DNA of 64,000 bases, taken from Psammoneis japonica. Its lineage: Eukaryota. The notes under the pieces were generated by a model, which searched no databases, had not been told where the DNA came from, and worked only from the letters and a program-made list of their open reading frames with translations. The position numbers were made by a program, and so were the translations under genes. Each line of letters starts with the position of its first letter. Position 1 is the first letter of the stretch. Location: the NCBI GenBank assembly GCA_008632985.1, contig QPGO01000301.1, forward strand, positions 1 to 64,000, in the 5' to 3' direction. Positions 5,534 through 43,139 of this stretch are shown one piece after another.

Positions 5534-5598
5534 AGAGAAAGCAGTGCGCTTCTTACATTTAGATGAATTTAGTTAAGCAAACTTGTCCTTTCACCACA

Positions 5599-19545: not shown

Positions 19546-19579
19546 GATGTTTCTGTGACTCCTCAAGCAAACTGGGGAG

Positions 19580-20482: not shown

Positions 20483-23400
20483 TCATTTGTGATCAAGCTG
20501 CCAGCAACCAACCAAGTCTGCATGCTGATGCCGTTGCCTCACAGTTCTCTGGTCAGCTTGACAAGCAGTTGGATGGACCACTGCAAAAATCGATCCTGTG
20601 TCTTCCTGCACGAAAAAACACAGCAAATGGGAGGGAAACTGTTGATCGCCCTTTTGTGTGCCAAAGGTCACACAGGCAAAGTCATGCCATGGTCCTTTGC
20701 TTTTGCAATTGGGGTGCGCACGGCACGCATCCCTCCCATTTGCATTGCAAAACTCTGTCTTGCAAGTCAGGTGTGTGTTTTCACTGTCTTCACCAACACA
20801 ATCCTCCCACTTTTCCGACATGAAGTTCAGCAACACAGGATGAACTTGGCAACGAGCGTGCAAGCTGTTCCACACAAACGTCACAGCGCTGATCCCTTGG
20901 TTGCAGGTGAGAGTGGACACACTTCCTCCCAGCATGTGATTGTCCGTCCTGACTCTTGATGATTCCTTTTTCCCATTTGGCAAAATCCAGCCATTGGCTG
21001 AAATTGCGGCGTTGAGCCTCATTTGGTCCTCCACACATGACACGACCTGCTTCAGAAAACTGTTGAGGTTGCATTGTTGTGTGGCAGATGACGGCAGTTT
21101 GAAAAAGTCTTTCAAGAGACATTCCCCCAAGCCTGCGTCAAAGTTCATCGCATGTCGGCAACAACAAAGAAACACTGGGAGATGGAGTGTTTCATGAAGC
21201 TTTTGAAGCTTCCACCCGCACCCTTCTGTTCGCGGGACAAATTGCACCACCCGGTCAATGAGGAGACGGATTTTCTTGTTCATTTTCTGAACAGATGAAC
21301 TGGGAGTTACGCTTGTGATGGGTGGATCGCCTGGCCTGTGCCATGCGTGGAAGACAAGAAGGTCCTCGAGCAATTAAATGAATTGCCGGACGCTGCAGTC
21401 AAGTCTTTTTCCCTTGTGTCCTCAGCCTCACTCTCCTCTTTCTCATCCTCATTTTCGTCCCAGTCACCCTCTTCGGACTCCTCCGACCTTTCATCGTCAG
21501 AGTCGTCCAAGCACTCACCAGGTTGGCAGCAACTCTGAAAGTTTGCTTTGGGTGTCTTGCGATTCTCTGGAACAATGGGTTCGTCTGCGTCCTCGTCAAG
21601 GAAGCATGACTCACATGCGTTTCGTCCCTCGCTGGCCAACAGGAGAAGGTAGAAAACAAAAGCCATTCCAGCCCAGCAGTGAGAGTTGAGGAAGGCAAGC
21701 GATGTTGCTCCTCCTTTGAAGTTTGTTCGCAAAAAGGATGCTTTGTAAGTTGACCGGTGATTGCTGAAAATCCTTTCCACTGTGCTGTCCACCTCACTTG
21801 CGACCACAGGTGTCATGCTGTCTACAAATGAATTGATTGCCCTTTTCAAGGTGCCGTTTTCAAAGAGATGCATCATGTCGCTTGCTGTCGCAAGGGCAAT
21901 GCCCCATGGTTGTGCGCCAAAGTCTGCCTCAAAAAGACAGTTGGCAGGTGCGTTGTGTTGCTTGAGGCAATGCAAGATGCCCAACCAGTGCTTCCTTTCT
22001 TGGTCTGATCTGTTGTTGTTGTTGGCCTTGGTTTGCACTTGGTGGAGATCCAGTCCTCGGATGAACTCGCATTCAATCCATGGGTCGTCCAGTTTGTTGA
22101 AGCCAGTGAGGCAAAAACAACAGCAACGTTGACGACAGTTGTGACCTCCGTGTCGTCCGACAAGACAGTCGCCGCTTTTTGCGTCTCCTATGATCAGAAC
22201 GATCAGCGGGATTGCATGGAGGTGTTGCATCTCATCCCCTCGTTGCACGCATGTTTTCATGCCTCCTTTTCTCATGACTTCCAAAAGTGGCTCCAAAATG
22301 ACACGCAAGCAAGTGTGGCAGTCTCTTGACGAGCGTCCCTTCTCCGCCTTGCGATTGTTTGAGAGATTCTTTGCCGCAGATGACGACATCTTTTCCAAAT
22401 CCGGGAGACAACCAATTGGTTTCCAGACACTCTTGTCCGACCATTTGTTGAAGGCAACATGCGCAGAGGTCATGATCACTGGTTCTCCGCAATGTGATCC
22501 CATCCCTTGTGTCCTGCCAGTCTTGTCGAGGTGAATGACATTGCACTCAAGAAATTGTTTCTCCGGGTCAGTTGTCCGTTCTTCGTGACTGCGCCTGCAC
22601 CACTCACCCGCCAAAAGGCACTTGTCATCCGGTCCCTTTGCTTTGCACTTCCCAAAAGAACAGTCTGGATTGGCCATGTTCTCTCTGCTGCACCGCAGGT
22701 GAGGATCGAGCAAAAACTGTTCCCAAACCTTTGTGAAATCCCATCTTGGCACTGACACTCGTTTTGGCAAACCGGTTTTGAAATTTTTGGTTTCTAGAGT
22801 GACAGGAATGGACTCGCTGGGTGGAAGAGGGAAATGCTCAGTTAAGGTGCGCATCAACTCTTTTCTCCTTGGCAGAACTGCACCAAGCTCAATGTTGCTG
22901 TTGCCAGTGTGCCTCTCAATGAAATCAACAATGCAGTCACACAATTCCAGGGGAGCACCACGTGTGTCCATGAGCTTCTTGCACAACTCTGTGCAAGCTC
23001 CATCAAGATTTGTCAAAGAGGGAGCAGAAGCCAAGGCCTCTTCTGCAGGAGCATCATGCCTGATCCCCAAACGTTGATCCTCATCATCAATGTCCTCTTC
23101 CTCCTCCATTGTCACGTCCAACACTGCAGCAAAGGATTGACCACCGCCAACATCCAAATCGTTCATTGCCAAAAGTTCAACTCCTTGCATGCTGTGGTTT
23201 GATGAAATGGAGGACATGTCGTCCATTCCGTGCGGCGCGTCATCCAGGGAGGGGAACAAGGGGCTGCTGCTTGGATCACTCGTTGAAGATCTTGGGAATC
23301 TGCTGTGAGTGGATCGCCTTGGATGGGATTTGTCATCATCAGAGGACAAAGAGGAAGAACCACCGCTTTCTTTGGGTGGCCCCTCCATTGTGGCAGGAGT

Positions 23401-23487
23401 GTCACTTTGATCTGGGATCAGATCTTGGGTTTGCAACTCTTGGGCAACTGAGTGACACGTTGGTGAGTGTCTCCAATGGCAGGCCAT
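20483..23487 (-). mobile_element. Plavaka-like transposase, frameshifted near 21.37 kb and hypermutated
   Basis: IHLDKT...GEPV...WKPIGCLP...CHTCLRVILEPL...LIIGDAKSGD...SDMMHLFENG...WKLQKLHETLH...NFDAGLGE...CRAHPNCKSKGPWHDFACV follows the Plavaka motif order, with Y>C/H. Confidence 0.72.
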
Positions 23488-23990
23488 TCACAAAAAACTT
23501 TGGCCACAACCGGGGCAGAGAAGAGGGTTTCCGTCCATTGTAAATCAGACAACATTGACAGGGCCTTCATCAAGACTCATGCTTGTTGTCCTTGTCTTGT
23601 GGATGAGAAGGGAAAAAAAGAACAACACGCAAAAAATGGCGGGAAATTGGCAAACATTGCATCATCTTGCAGATTTGGATGATTCTCACAGGCATGACGT
23701 GTCTGCATTTTGACATTTTATCTGGCATCCACAATGAATGTTGTGCTTTTCATTCACTGTCAAAATGCAGGATGTCATCTCCGTTGAAATGCAATGACAG
23801 CCATGTCAAAAAGCAAGTTGGACCATTCGTTGTTGTGTGCAAATACATTTTCAAATTTCAATGTTGCTGACAACAATTTGTGCAATGTCACAGAGAAAAA
23901 TAGAGTGCCTGGCTGTCTCAACATGACCCAAACGACGGTTGCACTGTCGAACAGTGCCACTCCTCTCATTGTTGCCGTGAAAAGATCAAG

Positions 23991-25294
23991 ATGTCGTCTC
24001 CAGCACAACTGGCAAAGAAGAGAAAGAAAAATGAGACCATTGAGCCAATGAGCCCGAGACTTCAGGCAGTGTTGAAGAGAACAGGTGCGCAGGCAGCGCA
24101 TGGTGCATTGAAATCTGAAGCAGAGAAGGTGGCTGGAAATGATCTCTTTCCACAGGTGAAGTTTCTCAGTCCATCAGAATTGGCAAGCAATGGGAACATC
24201 TCAATGTTTGTCAAGAAACAGATTGCCAGTGGCAACATGGACACTTCAAATTGGTCAGGAACTTGGGAGGAATGGGCAAAAAAGGTGGTAAAAAGGCAAA
24301 TTGACAATCGCAGAAACACGGTGTGTTCGGCCATTGGGGCGGAGGCAATGGCCCGTAAGCCAAGTGACCAATGTGTGTGATTCGAGAGTTGCGCACATCT
24401 CACAAGAAGATGACGGTGATGCTTTGTCTGTGCAGGCGTTGTCACTGAGGAAGAGGGAAAGGAAAAAGAAAAGAAACTCAAGGCGGCAGACAGGAGGAAA
24501 AAGCAAGGCAGGAAAAAGTCAAGCCGTGACAAGAATGAAGAGAATGACATCCCGTTTGTGCCGACATGGGATCCGTTTAGCCTGGACACTGTCACCGGCA
24601 GCAAACGAAGGTACAAGCAGGCACACAAGTGGTTCTGTGATCACATCCTGCCTCAAACCAAGCAAAAGCAGGCATGGAGCAGCACCGTCAAAACTGGGAA
24701 CGCACAGGTCTCACAGTTGTTTGTGGTCGGTGACGAAGCTTTGGCGCCATTGGCTGTGGAGAATCATTGGCAGGTTTGGGCACACAGGAACAAGGAGGAG
24801 GCGGTGGAAGAATTGGGTGAGGAAATGGAGCCCAAAGAAACAAGGCCTGCCCCTCGTGCACGAAGCCAAAGAAACAACGAGTGTCTTGGGGAGACGACGG
24901 AATCAATCGGTTCAACGATTCACACAAAGAGGTGACGAAAGATGGAGACTCCAAGGAGGGCAAGGAGTTTGAAAAGTGGCACGCGGAGATCAAGAAAAGC
25001 GAGTGCGAGAAGTCTGGAGAAGCAAAAAAGAAGAAAAAGAAAGCACCGGCCGGTGACACGGATGAGGTGAAGGCAATGAACAGCCCAATGGTGGAGAGCA
25101 GCAGGGATGATGACAGTGATGACAATGAGCAGGAGGAAGGTGCAAAAGGCAAAACGGATGACGGAGGAGACAAGTCCAATGGAGATGAGTCTGATGATGA
25201 TCGTCAGCTCAGTTTGAGAGTGTTGTGGCAAGAAAATGTGCACACAGTTGACATGGCACTCAGTCATTGCACTGCAGACGTAACAAGGGATTGA
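23991..25294 (+). pseudogene. Fragmented accessory ORF divergent from the Plavaka-like transposase
   Basis: Consecutive frames (LFPQVKFL...WEEWAKKVVKRQIDNRRN; KWFCDHILP...DEALAPLAVENHW; SWGDDGINRFND; acidic tail) with the same TA-lost/CG-kept state as the transposase. Confidence 0.5.
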
Positions 25295-26124
25295 CCCAAC
25301 CGATGAAATGCTTTTCTCGTTTAAAATGATGTTTACGAAAATTGACAAACCAAGGATTGTGCGGCAATGCAATCACGCATTGGCATGTGGCAACAAGGTG
25401 GAGGCAGACACAGTGATGTGGACACAGTGAAAAATGGCACACATGATTCTCAACAAGTTGTTGCAATGTTGGCACAGCAAACTTGCAACCAGAGGTTGGC
25501 CTTTCATTGCACAACAACAATTTTTTGCAACATTTTGACAAATTGTCATCATGCAAATCTACACATTTTTAACATTTCGTGCACTCTGATGAACAAGCCT
25601 TGCCAAGCAGCAGCAACACTGATGTTCACGACCATGTCCTTTTGGCACCTTGCAGCAACAACAAGATTTAGAACACCCCAACAAAAAGAGCAAACAAGAC
25701 ACCTCACAAGATGCCAGTCCTTGGCATTTTTGGGATGATCAAGAAGATGATCAACCCACCCAACTAGATTGTGCTGCTTGTGATGTCCTGTCAGCAGAAG
25801 GCTGTGGTGTGACATGATGTGGCAAATCAATGCCGTTTTCATCAACGACACTCAAGATGCCAGACAAGACATGATGAAACAAGTTCAAGAGGTGTGCCAT
25901 TTCTGTCAAATGTGGATGTGCATGTGCCCAACATTTGGACATGGCAAACATTGCACAACAAAGTCAAATGTTCAAGTGGGAAAAAAGAGAAAGCAGCAAC
26001 CAGCAGTGACCAGCCAAGCCAGTTTCCTCTAAGGCGGATGCATGACTGAATGAAGCATGGCTGGCTTGGAACAAGGATTGCTGCATGTGCCATCATGGTG
26101 AATGATGAATTTGTGGCAGGCCAT

Positions 26125-26155
26125 CATGTGTGTGTGCATGCATGTGTGTGTGTGT

Positions 26156-26188
<33 letters not shown>
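26125..26188. repeat. TG/CA mosaic microsatellite followed by a G33 run
   Basis: catgtgtgtgtgcatgcatgtgtgtgtgtgt then 33 G. Confidence 0.85.
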
Positions 26189-26191
<3 letters not shown>

Positions 26192-27511
26192 CAGCTGGCA
26201 CAGGAAATCTCTTTCAACAATCCAATGCCATGCAAATGCGTCATGTCATGGCACTTGTCTTGGCCTGTCTGGGAGTTAAATTGACAACACTTGACCTGAC
26301 CAATGTGCTGCCATGCAGGATTGGTTGCCATGAGATTGGCCAAGATGCAGGGCAGTGCCAGTGCAGAAACTGACTTGATGGTTTGGGGCATGAGACATGC
26401 TGAACACAGCCAATGCCTAAAGGATTTGTTCTTGCAACAGGCACTGCTGCAAAGCACCAATGGCAAAGCACCCATTGTCTGGATGTGTGGACCCAAATCA
26501 GACTGGAGCTTCTTGTTGCAAATGACGACACAAGTTGTGGTGGTGGATGCTGTCCCATTGTGATTGCAGCTTGCAACATTTGAGGTGTGTTGACATGCTC
26601 CTGATGAACATCATGCCTGCTGTTGGATCAACCACATGGATGTCCCCATTTCCAACATGTGCTTTCCCAATGTCACACAGGCAAAGCACAGCATCGCACC
26701 AGTTTGAGTGGAAACCAGGTTGGCACCAATGTCAGCAAATGGGGCAACTGCCTCCCCACATCTTGCTCAGTGCCTCACAGGCCAAGATGCTCTGCAAGTC
26801 TTCATGAATGGAGCCATGGTTGGGCTGCCCTTGGGTCCCTGTGATTGGCACATGACAGAATGCCACCAAATCATCCAAGCCAAGTTGGTGACTTTTTGTT
26901 GGAGCCCACCACCATGGATGGTGCACCAAATGGCAAGGCATGCTTCCTGCATGGGTCTGCACTCTGGCATTGCAGGGAAATGAAAAAGTGCGTGCAGCTG
27001 GCATGCCAAAGCATTGCCAACCTTGTCAAGCCAGTGGTGGGTGTGGCAACATTCCCGCCAATGCTGAGTCCTCCCTGAAAAGGACACGTGCACATGGAAG
27101 GACACAACATGCATGTGATGCTTGCTTTGACAATCCAGGCTGAGGGTTGCCCAACACCTGACATTGTCAGCATCATGTCAGGACAAAGACACCTCACATC
27201 ATCAGAGGGCAATGTTGATGATGAAGAGGATGCTCTTATCAAGGACATGCCACTGGCACTTTCACAGATCCACTTCTTGTTGCTCTTCTTTTTGTCCTGG
27301 CACTCCCCATGTTTTGACATGGAGAGGAGTTGCAATTGCTTGGCAATGTCTTTGAACCACTTGCCAAGGCTGGCCTTGTTGGCAACATCATTGTGGGTTC
27401 AAGATTTTGCCAGTGTGAGCTGGACTTTTCAGCAGAGTCCAAGGCAATGCATGGTTTGCCCTTGCCAATGACAGCACTGGAAGTGACAATGCTGCACAGT
27501 GAAGCAAGAGT

Positions 27512-27538
27512 GGCCTGTTCCAGCTCCAGGTGCTCCGC
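27512..27538 (+). repeat. Left TIR
   Basis: ggcctgttccagctccaggtgctccgc is the exact reverse complement of 43113-43139. Confidence 0.95.
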
Positions 27539-28199
27539 TTTTCATCACGCTGGATTTTCCACGCAGTTTTCAGCACCAGACATTTTTGTCTCCACCCGGC
27601 AGAGCTCGCACTTTTTGGCTTTGTGCAAACATTGATCATTTTAATGACGCAATGTGTTTGTGATGTCAACGCTCATGCACAACAACTGAGGTGCATGATG
27701 CGTCACAGGAAGAATCGTGTCAGTTGGCATTCAATGTTTTTCTGGCAATGCGCAGAACAATGCTGACTTCTACGAACACGTGCCGTCCACCCCACACACA
27801 CCAGCCACAATGCAGCACACCGCTGTCACCGCTCCACAACCCCCTCTTTGCCCTTGCGGTTGCATGGAACTGCCTGTTCCTTTCATTTCAAAGTTGCGTC
27901 ATTGTTGTCGCAACACGATTGCGGCTCTAAAGAGTTGCTGTTGTTGCGGACAACACCATCTCTTTGCATTCTCTCGTTTCGAATTCGGCAAGTCATTCTG
28001 TCATGTTTTTTTTTTAACGCGTCACCGCGTGCGTGCATTTTTCTGGTTGCTTCTCACGTGTCGTTTTATGGCTGTTTTGCACCAGGGCCTTTGGAATTTC
28101 TACAAAACTCAAGCATTCGCCTGAGCGTTCTCCGAGTGACAGTTGCTGCTGGAACAAACTTGTCTTGGTTTGTTTTCACTGTGACGCTTGCTGTTTGTA

Positions 28200-28441
28200 C
28201 TTTTCAGCATCTGGAACTGCCTTGGAGGCTGCCTCTGTTCATCCATGTCACTTTCGCAGCAACTGACGTTGGCCCCCTCTCTGGAGTGCATTTGTCGTAC
28301 AAGCGGGAGTGCAGCTCACTGTTTGACACTTTTCAGCATCTGGAACTGCCTTGGATGCTGCCTCTGTTCATCCGCATCACTTTTGCAGCAACTGACGTTG
28401 GCCCCCTCTCTGGAGTGCATTTGTCACACAAACAGGAGTGC
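28200..28441 (+). repeat. 129-bp-period tandem duplication upstream of the cargo gene
   Basis: cttttcagcatctggaactgccttgga...ggagtgc occurs at 28200 and 28329. Confidence 0.9.
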
Positions 28442-29801
28442 AAAAGCAGTGCATTCGCCATGGACACGTTGGCCAAAGTAGCCTCCCAGCAGCATCCCGT
28501 TGGTGGCAGTTCTCCTCAAGCCAATGATGACTCTTCCAGCACCTTGAAGGTTTCCTTTTGCATCCAGCGTTGCGTCGAGGCACTCGCGGAACATTGCCCA
28601 CCGCAGGGCAAAGCCAAAACTTGGTGCACTGTGCCTCTCCAAGATGCAGTTGATCCTCTTGAGTGCCCTCAAGGTCTTGTAGATTTTAGCATCTTGACCA
28701 CAGAAGATTGTGGAACAAAGAAGACGAGCCCTCTCTTTCATGTTCTTCATCACAAGAATGGCTTGGATGGGTTCAACAGTGCCAAAACACGGAACATGTT
28801 CCGCAACACTGTTGTCGATTGGTTTTGTGAAAAATTTTACTCCGAGAATCGACCGCAACTAAACCAGTGCATCAAGGACAAGAACCAGCACCTCTTGATG
28901 TTGGTTGTGGTGCCATCAGGAATGTCGATGAGGGACGCCGTGAAGGACAAGCAAAACATTGCTGCTGTTTTGATGCACCATGTCAAGACAAACATTGGCC
29001 TGCTTGTTGATTGCGTCCATGTGACAGAGTCTCTGGTTGTGTCAGTTGGGACGGGCGATGAGAGTCAATCGATCGCACCGTCAAGTCGAGGTGCATGTCC
29101 TTTTTTGATTGGACTTGCCCAAGCCATTTGCTGTGGTGTTGTCAAGAAGATGGGTGCACATCTTCATTGTCAGAAGACTTTGAAGTCTCATCACATGGGA
29201 GTGATGGGTTTTGAGGACATCACGGACACCATGAGTGATCGTTCCGATCTGGCGGACATCCGCAAGCACTGGGGCTGGGATGATCTCATGATGAATGATC
29301 AAGGCAACACTGTTGCCCTGTGTGCAAAGGAGAGGATTACTCCAATGAGCTCTGCAATTGTTTTGGCCTTTCCTCGTTCCAGCGCCAAGCATCAGAATGT
29401 TGCAACAGAGATCCGCAAGGATGAAGACTGTTGGGAGGAACCGCTTGTTGAAGGAGGATGCATTGCTGATCATTCGTGCATTGCCAAGCGCCGATTCCAC
29501 TTGGCATCTTTGGTCAACATTCAAAACCTAGAAACGTGCGATGATGAAAAGTCGACCAAAGATTTAAAGACGCATGCGTGGCTGCCTTTTGGCAAGGTCG
29601 TGTTTCAAAGTTGGCAACGAATTAAGTCTCCAAAGGGGGTGAAGAACAATTTTGAAATGTTGGCTTTGAAGGGGTTGGACGTCAAGTTCAAATGTGAAAC
29701 AAGATGTCCTGTTCTATCTGCAAAACAGCACTGGGGTTCAATCTGCAACCATTGCTCTGTTCGAAACAAAATCGCTCAGAGGAAGCAGGTGGACGAAAAG
29801 C

Positions 29802-29985
29802 TGAATAAATGCTGCCATGACAGCTGAGAATTGGGTGCAAGACAAGACAGAGTGTTGAACAGCATCAACAGGTTCTAGAATTGTGAGATGTTGCGCTGCT
29901 GGGGCCACTGAATGAGCGACAGTGGACCAATTGCCAACAGTGCATAAACTGCCTACATCTGTGACAGTGCATCAGCATTTGTTCA
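29802..29985 (-). repeat. Copia 3' LTR
   Basis: Direct repeat of 36315-36498. Confidence 0.95.
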
Positions 29986-30136
29986 GTCCCCTCGAACTGA
30001 CACTGGCTCCGCTCGGGTCAAATCGACAGACAAATGCAACCTGATGCTGCCCTGTTCCAGGGCAGCAGTCATGTTTTGGGGGTGGGAAAAGCTGCACCTA
30101 CGCGGCAAACCCGTTTGGTTTGTCCCCTTTTGGGAC

Positions 30137-33100
30137 TCACCACAGGATGTGACTTATGATTTCCCGGAGCTTCGGTCCAGGCAACAACTTGGTCAGTGCG
30201 TCCGCCAGATTCGTGCGTCCGTCTTCCCAAGCAATGCGCACTGTTCCAGCGGCTTGTGCCTCGCGAGTCCTGTGACAGGCAATTGCATTGTGCTTCTTCT
30301 TCAAAGTGGACTCTGGTTTGGTTGAGTTCTTGAAGACAGCTTCATTGTCACAGAAAACGTTGGTGGCCCCATCCATGGGGATTCCGAGCATCCGAAGCTT
30401 GCAGCGCAAGGCTTCGATTTGCTCCACTGCAGTCTTCATAGCCACGAACTCTGACCCAAAAGTAGAGGACTCTGCGGCATTCTGCCGCTTGGAGTGATGC
30501 AAGATGGGCGCTCGTTGGACAAATGTCAGGATCCCAGTGTGAGACCTGCATGTCACACGGCATCCGGCGTGATCAGCATCGACAAAGCAAGCAGCAGTCA
30601 CGCTGTTCCCACGTGCCTCCAGCATGTTCAGCGGCATTGGTTCAGCCGCGCCAGGGCAGTGTTCTTCCCAATCACACTTGGTGAAGCAACTCTTGTCAAA
30701 GACGGGCTCAGTGTCGTCGAACACTGGCGCAGACTCAGAGTGAGCCTTCAAGCATGCAAAGACATGGAGCACCTCGTCCAGGTGTCCAACTCATGGTGCT
30801 GCCAAGCAGGAGGACACAAGTGAGACAGCGACAAAAATGTCCACTCACCCCAGTTCAACTGCCCACCGCAGCACACCAATGAGACCTTGACAGCAGTTGG
30901 CCGTTTTGGCATTCAACTCAGGTGAACCGTCCAGTTCAGGCCTGCATCCCGAGCTCAAGGGCGTTGACGCCTTCATCGGAAGACGCCTGTCAGTTTTCTT
31001 AAGCTCTAATTCAACGTCAGCCAATGCCCTTTTGACACAAAGGTCAGAGGACACAGCCCAGCATGTCTTGCCATCCGAGTCAGACAGCTGGCACTTTCTG
31101 ATCTGGGCGCCCAAGTGCTCTTCTGGTTCGCAGACACTTCCGTCCTTGAGTGTGTGCCCAGAGCTCACACAATCCATGACCTTCTGAGGTTCATGGGAGA
31201 CGCACAACAAGTCGTCCACGTAGACAAGTGCACACTCCCAGTGCTTGAAGCCATCCGGCTTAACCGCAGCCCGCATCCAGACATCTGGGTCAGCCTTGCA
31301 AGACTCGAACCCAGCATCCCGCAGAGCAGCTGCCACATGTTCCCTAAATCTTGCACCTGAAGACTTGAGACCACACAAGGCTCGGACAATGATCACCGGC
31401 CTTCCCTCGTTCTGCTTCCCAAATTCCAGGCCAGCAGTGGTGCAACACTTTTCCCCAGTGTGTGCGTTCAAGCAGGCATTCTGAACATCAGCACTCAGGA
31501 CCTCCAGGTCATTCAGAGCTGCCACAGTGAATGCCATCCTAACACTGTCACGCGACACCACACTGGAATGTGTCGATTCCTCAGGTGGATCGGTTTGATG
31601 GCCTCCGGCCACGAACCTCGCTTTACGTTGGAGGGTGCTCTTGATGTCAAAGATCACATGACAATCAACATGTTTGCACCCGACCGGTGCAGTGTCGTCA
31701 TCGCGGAATTCGAACGCAGGCATGACGTCACGCATTTCCTTCTCAACAGCCTTGAACCAGAAGTCGGTCCCCGTTCTGTCATCTGTTTCCACAGCTTCCT
31801 CAACAGATTTCGGGAGTTCAATTCTGAACTCATGCGCACGTTTCCAGCAACGCGACTTGACTTTCTTCAGGATCCTTGATCTGCGACGCAAGACGTCTCG
31901 GACCCACCAATTGAAGGCTGGTTCACTGGCTGCTTTGTTCGCTGCAGCGTGCTCAGCAACCTCGACTGGATTGGACTCCTTCAAATCCTTGAGAGGAACC
32001 CAGGATGCAGTCCCTTCCTTCCACTCGACTTGTGGGTCCCAACCTGCGGTCGTCCTCCTGGGAGCACGCCTGCCAGTCTCAGTTGTTGTGCACCCGTCAT
32101 CGGCCGTTACGGCACGGGCATCACGTCGGTGATCGACTGTTTCCTTCATGATCTGGTGGGCATTCCCTTCAGAGTCGATCTGAGCGAACAGGTTCTCTGC
32201 AATTACGTTGGCAGTGTAGGAATCAGTGGATCCGTCAGGGAATTCCACGTCGCACATCCTCGAGTCTGGGACAGGGTTGTCGTTCCTGGCACCAACAGGA
32301 ACCCCGTCGCTGTCTTGCTTGCGTGCAATGACCCTAGCATGAGTCAGCTCGCCTCCTCGTGGCAACATGACTTGAGCTGTGAGATGTTCATCTAGCCCTT
32401 CCGGGGTGTGCTCATCAGCTTCCGGTTTGGAAGCATCGGGTTCCACGGGTTCAACGGCATCGTCCCATTCATCCATGAAGTCGTCAGGGAGTTCAGGGAA
32501 GTCAGCACTGGCACCCTTTTCTGGGATGCTAAGCCGTTTGATCAAAGCTTGATTGACCGATGCAAGATCCATCTGGATCACCGGAGTTTTAAGGTCATCC
32601 TCTGGCATGGCCCATGCATCCTTCCGAATGATGGGTTTGCCTGATTTGGGCAAAACAATGAATGCCATGTCGTCAGTGCAGTTGTCAGCTGCTCCGAGCC
32701 AACGGCCAATGCACTTCTTTTCGTGTGGGAACTCCGCCACAGGCATGCAGTGACAAACAGGTTGACACCAATCAAAGAGAGAGAGGGAAGAGATGTCGGG
32801 TGTCGAACCTGTCACCTCCTCTTCTGGGACTCGTCCTCCCATGTCCGATGTGCCAGTCGCAATGATGCGTTGGATGTCACACATCCATTTGGCGCTGTGA
32901 GACCAAAGTTGCCTGTGAGCGCCAGTCCGGCGTAGAGTCACACGGGCTCTTTTCTTCAACTCATGAATGGATGCCTCGGCTGGGTTCTGCCAGGGGCTGC
33001 ATGGGGTGGACACCTCCTGGTGTGTCCTGCATTCCTTGCAGATCTCTTTGGTCTGGCCTTCTGCCATTTCCGGCGCGCCATCCGACACAAGGACCTGCGG

Positions 33101-34248
33101 TGCGCCAACGTCATGCACAAATGACATGACGGCATCCGGGTGGTCCTGTCTCCTCTTCCAAGGACAGAACCTGTCATGCCCTCTTCTGTTGGTAAATGCG
33201 CTTCCTCCCATCTCGCCATGTGTCGATTTGACCTTTGAAAACATCTGGTCGGAGTAGAATCATCCCTTGACAGCAGGGAACTTAAGCCAAGGGGCTTTCT
33301 TCCAGACTTTCTGTTCGGATGGTGTGCAGACATTACGGACCCCTGCCTGGGTCGTCACTCTGAGGGCATTCTCAGCGGCTGTCAGGCCAATGTGCCACCT
33401 TTTAGAGAGTGTCTTGGGCATGATGGTCGATGCACGACTCGAGGTCGACAGTGCATGCACCCGTTTCCGCTCGGCACAATCCGGGTGGACATCTGGGTCA
33501 CACCGGTCGTGTAGCCCGTCTCCCTCAGTGTCTTTGTGGGAGACATTTGCCTGAGCAACCAGGCGGTGATACAAAGAATCGTCGTCATTGGCATCCATGA
33601 TGACATTCTCGTCATGATGGGATGTTTGGCATGAATGAATGGAAGCGACACACCTGGTCGCATTCATCATCGTCGACCATCCGTCCGACTTTGCTGATCC
33701 TTGGCGCACACTGGCACATGCACGCGCTTCCTCCTTTTGCGCCAGGGCATCAGCAGAAGGCTCCCATCTCAGGGGTGATGCAAGTTCCAGCCGGGGGGAG
33801 GTTCTCCAGATCCTCCTTTGTTGGCTTGTGTGAATCAAAGACTGGGGCAACACCTCGCATTCGCAATGGCACCCTGATCTTTGAGTCAGGAAAAGAAATG
33901 GAGTGCGTGCCAGTCGGATCAAACTGGCGAGGGGCATCGTGGACAATCAGCCCATTCGCTCGCAGTTGGTTGGGGCATGGGAGGGTGTCAGTCATCTTGT
34001 CCCCGAAAAAACACAGCCTCGTGGACCAGCAGCAGGTGTGGTTGTCCATCAGTTGGATCAACCCACACAGTGGCAGCCGTGCAAATGGGAACATTCTCCA
34101 TTGGTGCATGCTCTTCGGAGCAGGGGTGTACCACGACAGTTCTGTCGATGTCAGAGTGCATCACAAAATTGGACCCAACAGCACACGTGTCAGCGTGCGA
34201 GTCCAAATCAGTGGTGGCTTCATCATCTGAATTCCCAGCAGATGACAA
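30137..34248 (-). pseudogene. pol: Copia pol: protease, integrase, RT, RNase H
   Basis: DLDSHADT; SKRWHIG; LVSDGAPE...PWQNPAEASI; RKARFVAGGH, ADVQNACL, RALCGLKSSG, LVYVDD; FVDADHAG, ESSTFGSEF, FCDNEAV, NLADALTK; several frameshifts/stops. Confidence 0.95.
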
Positions 34249-34347
34249 AGAGATGTGTGTGTCCTTTGAGAATCGCCCAGAGAAACAAACAGTGCCAGCA
34301 GGTTTAGCAACATTTGGTTCTGTGCCTTTTGGTGCTGGCGCAACTGT

Positions 34348-35811
34348 TCATTCCTCATTCTGAGGTTTCTCATGTGTGCTGCGTCCAAACTGGGCACCTG
34401 CATTGGCGGCAGGTTTGTCAGGCTCTTCGGAGTCTTTCGGCGCATCAGCAGGTTGAGGAGCAGGCTCGGCAACAGCCACTTTCTTCACAGTGCGAGTTTT
34501 GGTGTCGACCGACTCAGCTTCCGAGGACGCAGCAGCAGCTTTGCGTTTCTTTTCGGCCTTCTTAGCATCGCGGAGCTTTTGGACTTGCTCTCGTTTGGGA
34601 CTGCAAAGAGCTTTCCACTCTTCAACAGGACAATGGCCTGCCCAGATCCTGGGCTTGTCCTTCTTAGGTTGGTGCTTCCCACCAGGGTTGCTGCGCCGAT
34701 TGTTGCGGCGTTGGATGGATGCGATCCCGCTAGTGTCAGCATTGCGGTTCTTGGCATTCTCGACCAGAGTTTTCACACACTGCTGGCATGCCTTGAAGTC
34801 CGCTAGCTTCGTTGGGTCTCCATCCACTGCGCTCTTGCCAGTTTCCAACCTGGGGTCAGAGATGCCCTTCAGAAAGTCAGAGACCTTCTTGGCCTCGGCC
34901 ACCAGTTCATCAAGCTCAGACAAGTCATTGTGAGCCTTTTGATGACACTGGGTGCACTGGTCAAAGGTAAATCGACCCCATCCGGTGTGCTTCGCGGCAG
35001 CAATCTGTGCACAAGCACGGTTCTTTCAGGCAGTGGTGGCAGCCGATCCTTCCGCCTGCCTCTCAAGTGCGAAGAAAGCAGTGCGACCATCGCGGTTGCG
35101 ATTGGAAGGTTTGACAAAAGCCCATCCGGGCCCCCCTGTCACTGACTTCTTCAAGAGATCATACAGACGTTGCCTGTCCTGCACACACTGAGCTCCTGCA
35201 AGGCGGGCAGCAGCAATGGGGCACTCGTCAATGGCAGTGCAGGTGGCAGCCAACATCTCGGTGGTGACCTCTTCATGTTCCCCAGCTGGGTGGATGAGGG
35301 GCACTCCAGCAATGGCACTGCGGTGGTGACGTAGTTTGGTCTCCAGCAGCTCTTGGAAGGCAGGCCAGTCGCATGGGTTCTTGAGCTCCACGGCCATTTT
35401 GGTGGCCAATTCGTCATCTGAGTCAGCGGACTTGAATTGCTCCAGTTCCGTGAGACGTGCCGTCCATGTTCCAATGACGTCGCCAGCAAAGAGAGCAGCG
35501 GTCGGCTCTTGGTTCCGGGCTCTGCGGTGGTCAATCCATGCACGCAGTGCCTTGAGCTTGCGATTCGCCAGGTGTGGGAAGCGGACTTGGGGGTCAGCGG
35601 CGGTGTCCACGCTCTTCACAATGCCCTTGGTCATGTCGGCAATTTCCGTCAAAGGGACCTGTCCAGGTCCTCGATCGCAGCAAAGCCTTGGCGGGCCATG
35701 TGGGTGCGCGTCTGCGCATTGTATCCACAATGCGCAAGACAGGCGGTAAAGGCTGCGGCAGCGGCCATGGTGCATCAGCAGTTGTTCGCGTTTCGACGCG
35801 TGAGCATCCAC
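34348..35811 (-). pseudogene. gag: Copia gag
   Basis: Between the 5' LTR and the protease; KLKALRAWI...GPGWAFV...DGRTAFFAL; KKVSDFLKGISDPRLE. Confidence 0.8.
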
Positions 35812-36314
35812 TTGTGTGAGTGGAGGAAAGTGAGAAAAATGTGTGGTTCTCGTGCCGATTTGGCGGTTTCTACTTAGCGAACCCGCGAGCAGGCGGTGTT
35901 ACCCCCAAGCAACAATGTCCAACAGACATGCATCCACATGTGCAGTGTCCAAACAATTTGACAACGTATTTTGATTTATGAAATGCATGTGATCAAATGA
36001 CAGACCTCAATGCACAAATCATTGTGTCACACACATCACGCATGTTTACATGCCTTAGCCAACATGTTCCATCCACGAGATCAAACATTCCGTCCACTGA
36101 CGTCATGTTTAACGGATCACAGCTCTGGTCTCCAAGAGCATGTCGTTCACATCCATCAACATTGACACACATAAAGGACTCAGCGATTGCGCGAGCAACC
36201 ATGGGACCAACATGGCGCTCACCGCAAAAATCGATCGATCGCAACGACACCGTCGCACCGTTCGCGATGCCTGTTCCAGGCGATGAACATCATGGCGTGT
36301 TGGCTCTGATAAAG

Positions 36315-36498
36315 TGAATAAATGCTACCATGATAGCTGAGAATTGGGTGTGAGACAAGACAGAGTGTTGAACAGCATCAACGGGTTCCAGAATTGTGAG
36401 ATGTCACGCCACTGGGGCCACTAAACAAGCGACAGTGGACCAATCGCCAACAGTGCATAAACTGCCTACATCCGTGACAGCACATCAGCATTTGTTCA
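36315..36498 (-). repeat. Copia 5' LTR
   Basis: Direct repeat of 29802-29985. Confidence 0.95.
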
Positions 36499-38832
36499 AA
36501 GCTACGTCGAAAACCACGCATCAGCTGTGAGAAGTTGAAGAAGCCCATTGTGGACCACAGCAATGATCATGTTTTTCATGACGAGCATTGCAAAAGGGAG
36601 AAGCTTGAACAGTCGGATGATGACATGCAGGAAGATCCCTGCATTCCCAAACTTCCCACCAACGTGCCATGCAAAGTGCTCATGAGTTGCGCGAGTGGCT
36701 GCCGGAGGATTTTCTCATTTGGGCCATTCGACCCCGATGACAGACTGCCATCCGAGGCCTTGTTTGACATCATTGCAGGTTGGTGGTACAACCATGTGTT
36801 GCGGATTGCCTCTGATGGTGAGTGCAGAGGCAGCACTTGTCTGCCGGACCAGTGGTGCAGGCCTTTCAAGCCGCAACGACACTCTGAGCTGGTGGAGACT
36901 GTCACCGAAGACAAACAAATGGTTGAAGTTCACTTCCCTGCCGGACCAAGCAGGAAGGATCATTTCAAAGAGCCGCTTGCTCACCTTGCTGATTGGTGCA
37001 GGGCAGCTCCTGGACTTGCATGGTGCAAGTTTTGTTGAAGGATTCGTCACCATCGTTGCATGCATCACGCCAGTGCCCATGATGCAGGGTTGAAGGAAGA
37101 GGTGGAGGAGGAGGAAGAGGAAGAGGGGAAGGAGGGCACTGAAGAGACGGATGACCTGCAAAAGGCCGAGGCTGGCACTGCAAGGTTGCAACCAAGACAA
37201 AAACCAGGAGGAGGAAGATGGGGCCATGGATCAATCGGCTGAGGAAGATGAGGAAGATGGGGCCATGGATCAATCGACTGAGGAAGAGGAGGAAGAGGAG
37301 GAAGATGACGGTGTGCAAGACGAAATCCAGGAGGAGCAAGATCCAGAGGAAACTGAGGACGAGGAGGACAATGAACACAAGGAAGAAGTTTCTGCGGCTG
37401 CAGAACAGAAGTGAGAGAAATCCAAGACTGCCAAAGAGATGAGGGAGAAAGCCAAGGCTGCAAAAGAGAAGAGGAAGAAAGCCCCGGCTGCAGAAGAGAA
37501 GCAGGAGACAGTGGGAGATGCTGGACGCAGACGTTCGCATCAGACCTTGAAAGAAATCACTGGAGTGCACAAGGATGAGGATCTCATTGGCCTTTGTAGC
37601 TCTGTCCCGAAACCAAGGGCAAAAGGAGACACTTCATGGCGTCGGTTGACCAAAGCGCAGCAATGCCAAGAAAGGGATCGACTCGAGCGTGAGTGCGAAG
37701 ACGCTCAAGTGATGTTGCAGGTTGCCAAACTCATTTGGATTGATCCAAGCAAATGGAGCAGCAGGCATCAGCGTCCTGGCGATTCCAAAGGAGACGTTCC
37801 TCACTTGTTTGATTGCTTTGAAGGGAAAAACAAGGGCGTCATGTTGTGCAAACCATGGTTTGACATGCGGTGCAATGAAATGAACGGCCATCCCATGAAC
37901 ATGTGTGCGGGCCTCATTTTACGTGCCAAACACAAACCAAACGTTCCCCAGCAACTCAATCGAAAATGCAGGGACGAGATCAAGAACAAGGTGGAATTGA
38001 TCTGCAACCCACCACAGATTGCCAAACTGAAGAGATTGACTGAAGCGGAGATTCAAAAACTTCCACCTGTTGGGCAGGGAGCTGATTTCATTGGTTGCAG
38101 CTTGGAGGGGAACCGTCCTGTGCATGCAACCCTGGATTGGGCTGAGTGCAATTTTAAGTTTCGGCTTCCAGATGTGTGGAAAGATTTGAAAGAATTGAAC
38201 CCATCGGATGGTTGTTGCTCCTTGCCAGAAGGAAACGTGTTGATGCCATCGAACAGCAACTTGCCAACGAGCGGTCCACCCGTGAAATTCCTGCAAGGAC
38301 AAAACAACACTTGCATTTTTTCCTCCCTGGCCAGTGTTCTTGATCATGCTGGCAACGTGGAAATGAGAGACTGCATTGCTTCTCACATTCAAACATCTGC
38401 CAACTATGCCGACACTGACAACAAGCACATGTTGTTTGCAAAGAACATGTTGAATGGTCGTTTGAAGGGAAAATTCCCGCCTGAGAACTCAAACATGAAG
38501 TTTTGCGGCAGTGTGGATCGAACGAGTTCCCTTGCAGCAGGTGGTGAATTTGACGTGACGACCTGCAATGATGACTTCACAACTTTGTGCCATCTTGTGA
38601 ACAACCACTGCATTGCCTTGCACCATGGATGGATCTTTGATTCCAACCACCCTTTTGCATTGCCAGCAAAGGACATTGAGTGTTTCAATTGGTGTCTTGG
38701 GAACGAGGAACATGAGGTGAAATGCATGGCAAAAAAGCATCTGCAACAAGTGTTCATGGTGCACCAGTTCGAACTTCCTGGGGCGGTGCAGCAGAAGTTG
38801 CATGCAAAAAGGAAAGCTTTTGTGTTGGATGG

Positions 38833-41800
38833 TTAATCTAGTTGCATGACATTGCCATTTTGTTTGTCAGAATTGTCGCTGTCACTGTCCCCTGCCGCGC
38901 TCTCATCATCCTCCACAGTGTCTTCCATGTCGTCATTCTCTCCCCCCCCCCACTCACCAGTTTCAATGTCTTGTTCCTCCACCTCGTCCAAAGAGTCCTC
39001 AAAATGATCCATTGCCTCCTGCTGTCGGATGGCATCCAGAATTCCTTCATGCTCGTCATCACTCAAATGACGTGGATGAAGAAGTGAAGCCTCATTCCTG
39101 TTGCACGCACTTGGCAGTTCCAGATTGGCTGATGGTTCATTGAGCTCAATGTTGGCAGCTGCAATTTGCTTGAGCAACACTCTTGTCTTACATTCCTCAG
39201 CATCACCGGGAGTGTGCCATCCTCTGGCCCGTGGAACAGGGTTAAGATGCATTCCCTTGCAAACCCATTCACCGGCCTCAACAGTTGTGGGTGGGTCAAA
39301 CTCTTTCCAAACCTCATCCTCCTGTGCTTTGTGGGGGGGTTCATCCCATTGCAGCAGATGGAATCCCTCCTCAGATTCACAAGACAATGTGGCACAGCTG
39401 TTTGGAACAATTTCCTTGGCCATTTCCTCAGTCAGGAAGTCCAGCACAGATTTGTGAACAAACTGCACCTCGTTGGCGTCACTCTTGTCTGTTTGAATCA
39501 CCTGACACACTTGCCAATCATTCAGTCCCTCAAAGATGGGCCACAGTTTGCAAGCTCGGTTGCCACCTGCATGTCGTGGCTGCTCTGTTGGCTTGACATT
39601 TTTAACCCAAGGCCGTTTCAGCTGATCCAGGCAGGCTTCACAAGCACAAGGAATTCTTTGCATCGCAACCCAACCAATGGGGAAAAGAGGTTCAAATTGG
39701 AAATGGCGCAAGGCTCCAACGCCACAATGGCGCGTGTGCACTTGCACCAATCCAATCAACTTGACTTTGATTGAAGAGCCAAGAACTTTGTCAGCTTCCT
39801 GCAGACAATGCACCCTTTGAATTGACTTTTGAAGGGACTCCCTCTTGGCATGTTTTCTGTCACCAACTGTGCCAAAAGCATTCTTGTTCTTTGTGAGCAT
39901 TTTGCAACATTCCTTTGCACAACTGTGTGCGGCTACAACACTGTTGTCATCCATGACCAAAGCTTCAGGTCTAATTTTCCCATCCTTGTCATTGACTCCT
40001 GCAACAGTTGTGGACTGCATTTCTCAATGCATGGGTGATTCAATGCAGGCTCCAATGCCATCAACCTCTCCTTTGCCATGTCCAGGTGCTCCAATGGCAC
40101 GGTCAAACACAATGTTGCATTTGTGCGCAAAGACAGACAACAAGCACAGTGCCAAAGCACATTGGCATTGTTTGGCACAACCATCAGTGTGATCCCAAAT
40201 CACAAGCCACGCCTTGTGCAGGTTGCGGTTTTTTAACCAGGTGACAAACTTTTCCAAGTGAGCATTGGCGGTGGTGGCATCTTGCTTGGAAGAGTCAGAG
40301 AGATGCACATGATGTGTTTTCTGAAGCTCGTTGTCAACCATTGCATCGCAAACTCTTCCTTTGATTGACAATGTTCGGTTGTTGCCATGATGGTCACCCT
40401 GAACTTGGTTGTTGAACTCTGCCTTCTGATGCTCGGAGCAGTCATGAGACGTGAACAGGCTGTTGGGTGTTGACTCAAATGCTTTGCGATGCATTTCCAT
40501 GCAATGATTTTTCCCAAGAATGACCACATGGGGAAGGTGGCAGCGGAGCTTCTCTAAACTTGGAATGCAGTGCTCTTTTGTAAAGACACCGACTGGATTT
40601 CGGAACCTTGTCAACAAGGTCCTGCATTTCACCTTTGCGTCCTTGTTCCCATCTGGATCTGCCTCACAAACAGGACATGCTTCCATGTGCACACCATGCT
40701 TGGAACAACTTTTTACAGTCAAACAACATTGAAACAAAACTTGGGGCGCACTGGGACTTTCATTCTGTTCCAACAATGGAGTTGGGCAGGATGGGCAATG
40801 CTCACATTCACCCAAAACGCATTTCCAATGAGGATGATCCTGACCATTGACATTGCCACAAATGATGGTTGCAGCTGCATCTCGGGCTTTGGGATGAAGG
40901 TGATGGCCGTTGGGGCCAAACGCTTCCTCTTGACAAACACGCATTGTTTCCTCCAATTTGCCAAGGGCACTGTCATGGTTCTCCAAGTTCTCAGGATCCT
41001 CACTTGCAAGCTTCAGCCGATTTTGCTCCACCTCCATCTCTTTTAAAAGCTTCCTTCGAAACCTGTTCAATGCATCTTGTAGAAAATTGGCATTGGTGCA
41101 ATTGCTGCATTGACACATGCTGCATTGACTTGCGTTCATTTTTCGACACTGCTTGGGAATCAAAAATCGAAACATCGTGTCACTGATGAGGGTCTTGCCA
41201 TTGGCATCACGTGCATGTTTGAATCCGCCAACAGACACAGGCTTCAACATGTTGTTGTGCAGCTCACGCATGGACACATTGCGCAACCATTTGTTCACTT
41301 GTTTCTTGTTTCCATCTTCATCTTTAATGAGAATCATGTCTTGTGTGTTGGGAGACTGCACTGTGTCGGGATGATTCGACAACCAGTGCACAAATGCCTT
41401 TCGGATCTCAGGGGAAACTTTGTGAGGACGCCGACGGGGTTGCACTGAAGACCACATGACATCGTCAGTGTTTGAAAGCAATGCCTCTCTGGCAATCTTT
41501 CCCTTCTTCATTTGGCAACAAACAGTGCTCCATCTCAGGCCAAGTGCCTTGGCGCAGTCATGGGAAGACAACTTTTCCTCTTCAGCAGATTTTTCTGGTG
41601 AACTGGAGATTCCAGTTGCAAGAGCACGGACAAACGATTTTTTGTCGTCGGCGAGGTGTTGACCATTGCTGGTGTCATTGGCACGTGCCCACATTTTGCC
41701 CAACTGCTTGGCAATTTGCAAGGCCGCAGCATTTGTTTTCGGCAATGTCAAGCTGCAAGCCTGAAGAAATGGGGCCATTTCGGGAAAATGCAAAGCACAC

Positions 41801-42795
41801 ACAAACGCACAGATTTGTTGTTCTTGAGTGGCGGCGCAAGATGACACTCCTTCTCTCACTTTAACTGCTGCACGATGAAGTGCCTGTTGGGGATCTTTGT
41901 GGGTTGCTTCAACTGCATGAGGATTAAAAGTGGGGCAACCTTGGGAGGCGGTGAGGTTGACAGCAGTTTGGTTGGCCGAAGCGACAGAGGGAGTGACGGC
42001 GGCATTGTCAGAGTTGGGGTTGGAGGGAGTGGCGGCCGCTCCTGCAGTGTGCATTTGGGAGGGGGCTGGCTGTCTTGGCAAGGACGACCCTGGACAATGA
42101 GTGGGGTGTTCCTTGGAGGTGTTCAGGTTGAAAGCAGCCAGGTCGGCGGGAGCAACGGAGGGAGTGACGGCGGCATTGTCAGAGTCAGGGTTGGAGGGAG
42201 TGGCGGCCGCTCCTGCAGTGTGCATTTGGGAGGGGCCTGACTGTCTTGGCAAGGACGACCCTGGACAATGAGTGGGGTGTTCCTTGGAGGTGTTTGGGTT
42301 GAAAGCAGCCAGGTCAGTGGGAGCAACGGAGGGAGTGACGGCGGCATTGTCAGAGTCAGGGTTGGAGGGAGTGGCGGCCGCTCCTGCAGTGTGCATTTGG
42401 GAGGGGCATGGCAGTCTTGGCAAGGATGACACTGGACAATGAATGAGGTGTTCTGTGGAGGGGTTCGGGTTGAAAGCAGCCAGGTCGGTGGGAGCAACGG
42501 AGGGAGTGACGACGGAGGCAGCAGAGCTCGGGTTGTTTGGATTGAAGGGAGTGGCTGCAGCTGCTTCAGCTGCAGCAACGACATGGTCGGAGACCGTGGA
42601 GTGTGTTTCAAGTTCACAACAAGGCTTCTTGTTTTTGCTGTTGCCAGTCCCTGACTTGTGTCGATGGCCAACTCCATTTTGCTTCTTCCTCTTGTTGCCC
42701 ACGATGCACTGGAAATTTGATTGAAAGTGTGCGTCGAGAGGGCGCTGGTGGGTGAGACGGATGGCAAGTCGAGAGGACACATTTTTTTGGCACAC
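38833..42795 (-). pseudogene. Sola2-like DDD transposase, frameshifted at ~40.03 kb
   Basis: CQCSNCTN, CVLGECEHCP, HDCSEH (DYSE-like), HLSDSSKQD, HTDGCAKQC (DGCAxQY), APGHGKGEVDGIG. Confidence 0.78.
41985..42560 (-). repeat. 171-bp (57-aa) coding tandem repeat, ~3.3 copies, in the transposase N-terminus
   Basis: SQMHTAGAAATPSNPDSDNAAVTPSVAPTDLAAFNPN... repeated; anchors at ~42158, 42329 and 42500. Confidence 0.9.
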
Positions 42796-43112
42796 TCAAT
42801 CAAATTAACTGTGTTGTGTCTGTAGAAATGATGCATGTTCGGACGTCAGTTGAGTTGAAGAAGACCAAACACACGAGCTCCGAAAAATGAAAAAGTGAGT
42901 GATCACGAGCATTTTTCACGTAGAATGGGACACCAGCCGAAAATCACATTTAGCACAATTGACTCCTTCATTTTTGATCATTTCGAAAATCGAAAGGTAA
43001 GTGTACACCCGAAAACACATGTAAAGTGTACACTTGCCCTTCGATTTGGCAAAAAACGGATTTTGAAAAAGTTGTTTGCGCCAAACCTAAAAATGATGGG
43101 AATCGAACCCAC

Positions 43113-43139
43113 GCGGAGCACCTGGAGCTGGAACAGGCC
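43113..43139 (-). repeat. Right TIR
   Basis: gcggagcacctggagctggaacaggcc. Confidence 0.95.

Follow-up and report, generated by a model that had tools for sequence, protein, structure and literature searches.

A 64-kb region of the diatom Psammoneis japonica bears the marks of TpA-directed hypermutation in its repeat DNA

Several systems are known in which selfish DNA is inactivated by directed mutation. Repeat-induced point mutation (RIP), known from Neurospora and other fungi, proceeds by C>T changes, mainly from CpA to TpA, which creates TpA dinucleotides and stop codons and lowers the GC content. In animals, deaminases of the ADAR and APOBEC type hypermutate selfish elements on RNA or on single-stranded complementary DNA before integration, with a bias towards one strand. 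For the chlorarachniophyte alga Bigelowiella natans, TpA-specific hypermutation of integrated giant-virus and virophage DNA has been described in mutation-accumulation lines (Mettrop et al., bioRxiv 10.64898/2026.01.13.699255). According to the main text of that preprint, 230 of the 231 de novo changes in two viral inserts were A>G or T>C, with the GC-biased ones all located at TpA; the rate was about 1000 times background and only some lines were affected; TpA-depleted genes were enriched for reverse transcriptase and DDE endonuclease/transposase; and an ADAT2-like adenine deaminase was proposed by the authors (10.64898/2026.01.13.699255). Here, we describe a comparable pattern in a 64,000-nucleotide stretch (hereafter the window) of the diatom Psammoneis japonica (assembly GCA_008632985.1, contig QPGO01000301.1, positions 1 to 64,000 of the forward strand), centered on a Copia retrotransposon whose conserved tyrosines a first-pass annotation had noticed to be systematically replaced by Cys or His.

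The window records a post-integration, DNA-level, strand-symmetric change of TpA to TpG or CpA that is restricted to repeat tracts, is near saturation, prefers a pyrimidine 3' of the adenine, and is overlaid by decay of CpG. As in B. natans, the substitutions are nearly all A>G or T>C at TpA, only foreign DNA is affected, and the long-term outcome is TpA depletion with a gain of CpA and TpG. The host, however, is a stramenopile and not a rhizarian, the TpA odds are 0.0-0.2 here as opposed to 0.45 in the B. natans viral region, and the targets comprise a long terminal repeat (LTR) element, transposase-like and unclassified repeats, and a captured piece of a host gene instead of viral and virophage inserts. 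The preference for certain 3' neighbors and the co-located CpG decay are further features of the window, neither sequence context nor CpG being treated in the main text of the preprint (10.64898/2026.01.13.699255). De novo events were measured in B. natans, whereas the rate is read here indirectly, from an LTR pair with 12 events at pyrimidine-purine (YR) steps and no difference in its remaining 167 columns. No report of TpA hypermutation in diatoms was found in the literature searched, and diatoms are not mentioned in the main text of the B. natans preprint. The diatom represents a new major lineage, at much higher saturation, for a type of hypermutation that was described only in 2026 and in one alga.

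The retrotransposon lies on the minus strand between a 5' LTR (36315..36498) and a 3' LTR (29802..29985), both of 184 nt and recognized by direct-repeat comparison. The ends of the LTRs, which start with TG and end with CA, could be read exactly, and an AAAGC target-site duplication surrounds the element. Its pol region (integrase, reverse transcriptase, and RNase H) is a single reading frame at 30137..33946 (-), followed upstream by a protease-region open reading frame (ORF) with a DSHADT motif (33988..34347, -), which was traced through tblastn segments and is offset by frameshifts, and by ORFs at 34351..35898 (-) that are presumed to encode gag, an assignment made by position only, and for which a Pfam search returned no family match. 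The pol frame contains an RVT_2 reverse-transcriptase match above the Pfam cut-off (E 1.1e-10) and is 57% identical over 1238 amino acids (aa) to a relative (P0001, tblastn), and the element is collinear with intact polyproteins of 1410-1430 aa, the best at 57-58% identity. Judging from the RVT_2 domain, the one that was scored, from this collinearity, and from the LTRs with their target-site duplication, the interval flagged in the first-pass annotation is the pol part of a minus-strand Ty1/Copia LTR retrotransposon. The frame is interrupted by three internal stops (33260, 30845, and 30791), all of them TGA; the two that fall at conserved columns both replace Arg through a CpG change (CGA>TGA). 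Frameshifts were located near 33795 and at 34006-34010, and other copies from the same sample (contigs of sequencing run X1) are one base shorter at 33793 and 34005/34006.

The replacement of tyrosine in this frame holds up and cannot be put down to chance. All six strings quoted in the first-pass annotation (NACLNA, RALCGL, STHSSV, KHWECAL, LRCKLR, and IACHR) are present on the minus strand within 30269-31576, and at the same sites 20 intact relatives have NAYLNA, RALYGL, STYSSV, YWEYVL, LRYKLR, and IAYHR as their consensus. In an alignment with 70 intact Copia relatives, 284 columns were classified as conserved (the same residue in at least 80%), and the element agrees with the consensus at 252 of them. 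Only one of the 13 conserved Tyr columns is retained, nine having become Cys (TGY) and three His (CAY), as compared to 251 of the 271 conserved non-Tyr columns (Fisher test, p = 6e-12), with Phe (11/11), Asn (9/9), and Lys (12/13) being retained almost throughout. At the 12 changed Tyr columns, Tyr is present in 60 to 70 of the 70 relatives and the residue of the element in only 0 or 1, so that the refutation named in the first-pass annotation, active homologues with the same Cys and His residues, did not come about. Over the entire pol frame, Tyr accounts for 4 of 1270 residues (0.31%), compared to a mean of 3.53% and a minimum of 2.28% in 77 relatives, while Cys (3.94% versus 1.40%) and His (3.86% versus 2.63%) are in a surplus that roughly equals the Tyr deficit. 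A search for a Tyr-depleted homologue among 120 further Copia relatives found none below 2.51% Tyr. The sole conserved Tyr that survives (TAC, 31223-31225, aa index 908) is that of the catalytic YVDD motif; although this is the most essential Tyr, its survival as 1 of 13 may be due to chance.

The changes extend beyond tyrosine. Among the 32 changed conserved columns, 18 are explained by a single step from TpA to TpG or CpA, six by a CpG step, and eight by neither. The TpA steps comprise the 12 Tyr columns together with I>T, I>M, I>V, K>E, and two cases of T>A, several of them spanning codon borders, and the six CpG>TpG/CpA steps gave R>stop (twice), R>C, R>Q, P>L, and G>R. All 18 of the A>G or T>C changes at conserved Copia columns go back to TpA. 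From the replacement spectrum predicted beforehand, Y>C/H and I>T/M/V were recovered at these columns, and V>A and L>P/S are absent from them. What is hit is TpA, on either strand and in coding or noncoding DNA alike, rather than the tyrosine codon in itself.

The depletion of TpA is a property of whole tracts. Three of them were delimited in the window: a repeat tract at 400..3700 (TpA odds 0.02-0.29, border set on a 100-bp map), the main tract at 7000..48000 (0.00-0.22), which holds the Copia element and other degenerate elements, and a tract at 52800..55700, placed by 1-kb odds and the 100-bp TA map. Altogether, about 47 kb of repeat DNA has TpA odds of approximately 0.0-0.2 per kb bin, compared to 0.35-0.94 in three stretches of host genes. 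In the depleted tracts the TG/CA odds rise up to 2.1, and ApT stays near 0.9 across the window. The Copia element itself has 57 TA where 350 are predicted from its composition, and 335 CG where 492 are predicted. In each 2-kb bin, TG is about as frequent as CA, and a strand asymmetry of the two, looked for across the window, was not found. The borders of the tracts are sharp to about 100 bp, the number of TA per 100 bp rising from 0 to 5 at 48000 and running 12, 1, and 0 across 52700-52900. As an unmutated control, the host cytochrome P450 gene at 3923..5533 (+) was compared to its homologues; diatoms account for all of its best named relatives (Epithemia, Amphora, Seminavis, Thalassiosira, Skeletonema, and Bacillariaceae; 43-50% identity), the protein collection contains nothing near-identical to it, and it retains the conserved Tyr in 5/5 columns. 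Diatoms, including Fragilaria crotonensis and Nitzschia inconspicua, are likewise the source of the named relatives of the Copia element. The P450 and Copia relatives thereby place the window in a diatom and not in Bigelowiella, a kinesin query having matched generic kinesin clusters only. With such sharp borders and an intact set of P450 tyrosines, the TpA change is confined to foreign or selfish DNA and spares the host genes. The host island at 3800-7000, which lies between depleted tracts and carries the P450 and DTW-domain genes, has TpA odds of 0.35-0.48, most other host bins being at about 0.5-0.9; this could mean that the process leaks slightly into adjacent genes, or simply reflect the composition of these genes themselves.

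A second consequence for coding potential concerns the stop codons. Counted in six frames, TAA drops from 8.4 per kb in host DNA to 2.2 in the depleted tracts and TAG from 7.8 to 1.4, and TGA is constant at 23 per kb. The expectation that inactivation proceeds by missense and removes TAA and TAG, unlike in RIP, was thereby borne out. What the pattern shares with RIP are dinucleotide-directed transitions in genomic repeats, fairly sharp borders, and possible leakage to neighboring DNA; the difference is that TpA is the substrate here, that stops are removed, and that genes are killed by missense. Fungal RIP was thus rejected as the cause, since TpA is depleted instead of enriched and TAA and TAG are down about four- to six-fold. 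The erasure of these two codons is the reason why long, empty ORFs with 0-0.8% Tyr abound in the tracts. A stop-free frame of 686 aa at 27767-29824 (+), which has 0.4% Tyr and matches no Pfam family, is probably a by-product of this erasure and not a gene.

Both the timing and the direction of the change can be read from duplicated DNA. The LTRs of one insertion are identical at integration. Here, 17 of the 184 columns differ, all by transitions, and the remaining 167 are identical. The differences amount to 12 events, namely five TG/CA doubles, four of TA versus TG or CA, and three of CG versus TG or CA, all at YR steps. That LTRs of one insertion have come to differ, and only at YR steps, means that the change acted on the integrated DNA, at a pace well above that of ordinary substitution. 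The main tract also contains a diverged copy (7732..8339, +; 73% identity) of a piece of the host DTW-domain gene (5932-6524). The piece has 17 TA and 35 CG in the gene, compared to 0 TA and 3 CG in the tract copy; out of 15 aligned ancestral TA, ten became TG, two became CA, and three something else. The direction from TAY to TGY or CAY that had been proposed from protein conservation was confirmed by the latter (Tyr kept in 1/13) and, independently, by this host-gene fragment. Taken together with a second, unrelated element treated below, three independent lines of sequence comparison point in the same direction.

CpG is likewise reduced in the depleted tracts, with odds of 0.06-0.8. Every CpG-poor tract is also poor in TpA, but several TpA-poor tracts, including the Copia element, hold CpG odds of 0.6-0.8. 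As no CpG-poor tract retains TpA while TpA-poor tracts retain CpG, the loss of TpA is the faster process. The decay of CpG to TpG or CpA, a change that these tracts share with the deamination decay of methylated CpG, is a second and slower layer here and is the source of the in-frame TGA stops.

The TA that survived are not randomly distributed with respect to their neighbors. TA survival in the depleted tracts was scaled to host DNA, and the figures are approximate because the baseline is the host and not the ancestors of the elements. It is lowest for ATAT at 0.7% (0.007), followed by ATAC at 3% (0.034), ATAG at 6%, ATAA at 9%, GTAC at 11%, CTAC at 13%, GTAA at 16%, and CTAG at 18%, and is highest for TTAA at 41% (0.41) and CTAA at 44% (0.44). 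One-sided survival by the base 3' of the adenine is 0.045 for T, 0.106 for C, 0.174 for G, and 0.258 for A, and the two-sided contexts are roughly the product of two independent per-strand terms, as in a multiplicative two-strand model. For 30 events of known direction, a 3' pyrimidine was found on the mutated strand in 25 and on the unmutated strand in 17, the former count being inflated by Tyr codons because TAY always has a 3' pyrimidine. The 3' preference accounts for the excess of Cys over His, which is 14 to 3 over two elements.

We put the probability that a post-insertion process converts TpA to TpG or CpA in this repeat DNA at about 0.8. We infer that the process is enzymatic and targeted, i.e., a form of genome defence. 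In the mechanism we propose, a DNA-level process limited to repeat (probably silenced) chromatin would turn TpA into TpG or CpA after the entry of an element, the change being A-to-G within 5'-TA-3' on one strand or the other. It would run near saturation, at a rate at least about 100-fold above that of other substitutions, with the order of preference TAT > TAC > TAG > TAA, i.e., a pyrimidine 3' of the adenine. As each TpA can be hit only once, such a process cannot create stop codons. Genes would instead be killed by missense, chiefly Tyr>Cys/His with some changes of Ile, Lys, and Thr, while TAA and TAG are lost and TATA-like motifs would also be erased. On the same tracts, the decay of CpG to TpG or CpA, as expected for methylated repeats, would follow more slowly and yield the in-frame TGA. 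The driver would most likely be a DNA adenine deaminase that is guided by a chromatin or small-RNA mark, as has been proposed for B. natans. The underlying chemistry is somewhat more likely to be adenine deamination to inosine, on either strand, than anything else, as far as base changes alone can tell.

The alternative that survives best keeps the TpA process and alters its chemistry. The thymine of TpA might be modified in silenced chromatin (for example to 5-hydroxymethyluracil, or by glucosylation) and then mispair with G or be misrepaired, resulting in T>C. Because TpA is self-reverse-complementary, T>C and A>G are indistinguishable from sequence, and in dinoflagellates 5-hydroxymethyluracil is enriched at TpA and TpC. 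To our knowledge, however, no such base is known in diatoms, and 5-hydroxymethyluracil normally pairs faithfully with A; the thymine route is considered improbable. Adenine deamination is also what the B. natans authors prefer in the main text of their preprint (10.64898/2026.01.13.699255).

It is very unlikely that no hypermutation took place and that the families are natively poor in TpA, for example by avoiding TA in the face of a TA-reading nuclease, or that the tracts were shaped by an overall AT>GC bias, or else by biased gene conversion. TpA-poor intact elements do exist, as one metagenome locus (L063) with an intact 1423-aa ORF and TpA odds of 0.14 demonstrates. Yet native poverty in TpA is contradicted by the replacement of Tyr with Cys and His and not with the conservative Phe, by the stops and frameshifts in the pol frame, by an LTR divergence at YR steps only, and by a host-derived fragment without any TA left, and general drift towards GC is contradicted by an ApT near 0.9.

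Still less credit is due to ADAR-like A-to-I editing of retrotransposon transcripts that became fixed through reverse transcription before integration. The flagged element is a retrotransposon, and A>G with a 5' U preference is ADAR-like according to the discussion in the B. natans preprint (10.64898/2026.01.13.699255). RNA editing would, however, leave the LTRs identical, although 12 YR-step events separate them; the host-gene fragment copy, a transposase-like ORF, and noncoding DNA are depleted to the same degree; and both strands are affected equally. Furthermore, the 3' preference observed here (T > C > G > A) is opposite to the 3' G preference of ADAR. The window shares with ADAR and APOBEC systems the deaminase-type transitions in selfish elements and departs from them in being mutated after integration, as its LTRs differ, and symmetrically on both strands. 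ADAR-type editing fixed by retrotransposition was rejected given the 12 LTR events, the near equality of TG and CA, and the involvement of DNA other than retroelements.

A sequencing or assembly artefact, with modified bases of silenced repeats being systematically misread (A called as G and C as T), is no more credible: both dinucleotides are plausible modification sites, the pattern ends at repeat borders, and the runs come from one sample, but over the depleted single-copy part (43.3-48.9 kb) the run X1 contigs show roughly 0.3-3% differences to the window per piece and hence carry the same TpA-poor sequence, miscalls on two strands would yield neither clean site-by-site TG or CA alternatives nor 90-99% conversion, proteins with 0% Tyr and high Cys and His occur among unrelated public metagenome predictions, and the B. 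natans result stems, according to the main text, from Illumina data of mutation-accumulation lines (10.64898/2026.01.13.699255).

Several observations weigh against a post-insertion TpA process acting on repeats. The part of the main tract at 43674-48000, with TpA odds of 0.01-0.11 and CpG odds of 0.13-0.31, is depleted and yet at single-copy depth in the sample contigs; either present-day repetition (at a likeness of at least 90%) is thus not required, or an old repeat lies there. The baseline for the context analysis is host DNA instead of the elements' own ancestors, and the TG/CA doubles of the LTR pair could derive from CG as well as from TA. The eight of the 32 changed conserved columns that fit neither a TpA nor a CpG step are mostly less conserved ones. 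None of the 197 Copia relatives (77 + 120), three named diatoms included, is Tyr-depleted, so that no second named diatom among them shows the process. The three sequencing runs found, among which no RNA run is listed, all come from one sample and study and are not independent of the assembly, so that the base calls rest on a single sample, and the conclusion is drawn from one 64-kb window of one assembly in which no de novo events were observed.

A second transposon family in the main tract is represented by a stop-free ORF of 923 aa at 40027..42795 (-), called Sola-like in the first-pass annotation, for which 1057 relatives were found in the protein collection. It contains no Tyr at all, and in comparison to 55 relatives of at least 500 aa, 5/5 conserved Tyr are now Cys, so that the replacement noticed in this protein holds as well. 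A Pfam search of the ORF and six of its relatives identified no family. Five relatives from public metagenomes (P0289, P0346, P0238, P0297, and P0326) have 0% Tyr together with 3-6% Cys and 4-8% His, and may be hypermutated copies in other samples. An ORF of 726 aa at 21310..23487 (-) has 0.3% Tyr and a weak match to the Plavaka transposase family (PF18759, E 1.5e-5, 24.9 bits, under the cut-off of 26.3), and the ORF described as CRE-like (52940-53686, +), located inside the tract at 52800..55700, gave no Pfam match. The strings quoted for these neighboring proteins were found at 40165-40185 (DGCAKQC, -), 20681-20725 (CRAHPNC..PWHD, -), and 53282-53296 (KPHSE, +). With respect to the family names, Copia stands through its RVT_2 match, and Plavaka has a sub-threshold match only. 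A Pfam search of 29 long ORFs from the depleted tracts returned nothing besides this sub-threshold Plavaka match and a weak DUF6057 match, which was taken as chance.

The main tract further contains a direct-repeat pair at 16665..16942 and 19580-19857 (90.6% identity), whose copies repeat the spectrum of the LTR pair, with eight TG/CA doubles, two TA versus TG, and six CG versus TG or CA, and differ in addition by two transversions. Internal tandem repeats were observed in two degenerate elements, at 18707-19547 (offsets of about 170-250 bp) and at 41939-42515 (about 172 bp), the former being located within a GC-rich (57%) ORF of 624 aa without a family match.

The depth of the sample contigs and their variants provide information on other copies. 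Summed depth, which is not equal to copy number, reaches thousands on 29.7-43.7 kb and about 54-94 on 43.7-48 kb, and the depth on 29.7-43.7 kb fits a multi-copy family. Between the run X1 contigs and the window, 359 transitions and 55 transversions were counted; 40 of the 418 variant places were inspected and are mostly of the CpG type, with four TG/CA doubles and one of the TA type, which is neutral for the TpA reading. Some sample contigs bridge the Copia element (junction 29803/36635, with 6831 bases skipped) or loop from LTR to LTR (36401/29895). Such junctions are what alleles with a solo LTR or an empty site would give, as would copies of the family in tandem or circular form elsewhere in the genome.

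Related Copia loci in metagenomes have TpA odds of 0.48-0.98 in 79 of 80 cases, compared to 0.16 for the element of the window. The locus L063:1574-5845, on a metagenome contig, carries an element with 43% identity to the Copia element of the window, an apparently intact ORF of 1423 aa, and odds of 0.14 for TpA and 0.27 for CpG. The codons TTA, GTA, and ATA are absent from it, and 19 Tyr codons (1.33%) remain; the counterparts of the 47 Tyr in its best intact relative are Tyr at 14 positions, Phe at 12, His at five, and Cys at four. Instead of a dead hypermutated copy, it appears to be a lineage that continues to code while avoiding TpA, perhaps in adaptation to the same process.

Diatoms contribute greatly to primary production, and the control of their transposons is discussed chiefly in terms of methylation and small RNA. 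Tentatively, and with rather less confidence than we attach to adenine deamination as such, it may be proposed that a chromatin-targeted editor acting on double-stranded DNA is active in diatoms, a natural DNA adenine deaminase that would convert 5'-TA-3' to TG or CA, with TAT and TAC preferred, across whole transposons soon after insertion. It would be the A:T>G:C counterpart of fungal RIP, shared with the chlorarachniophytes and possibly ancient in the stramenopile-alveolate-rhizarian (SAR) group, and some lineages, such as that of L063, may avoid TpA to escape it. If this is true, the enzyme would be a natural one for A:T>G:C changes in DNA in a TA(Y) context and would be of interest for base editing. 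In tracts of this kind, gene prediction will yield long spurious ORFs, two of the three stop codons having been erased. The finding would add a second lineage to the only one described so far, which argues for a widespread system and not for an oddity. Diatoms would then have a second, mutational line of defence against transposons, and their repeat landscapes, the ages of their pseudogenes, and the dating of LTR insertions would need rereading, the last of these because the LTR divergence here is entirely due to hypermutation.

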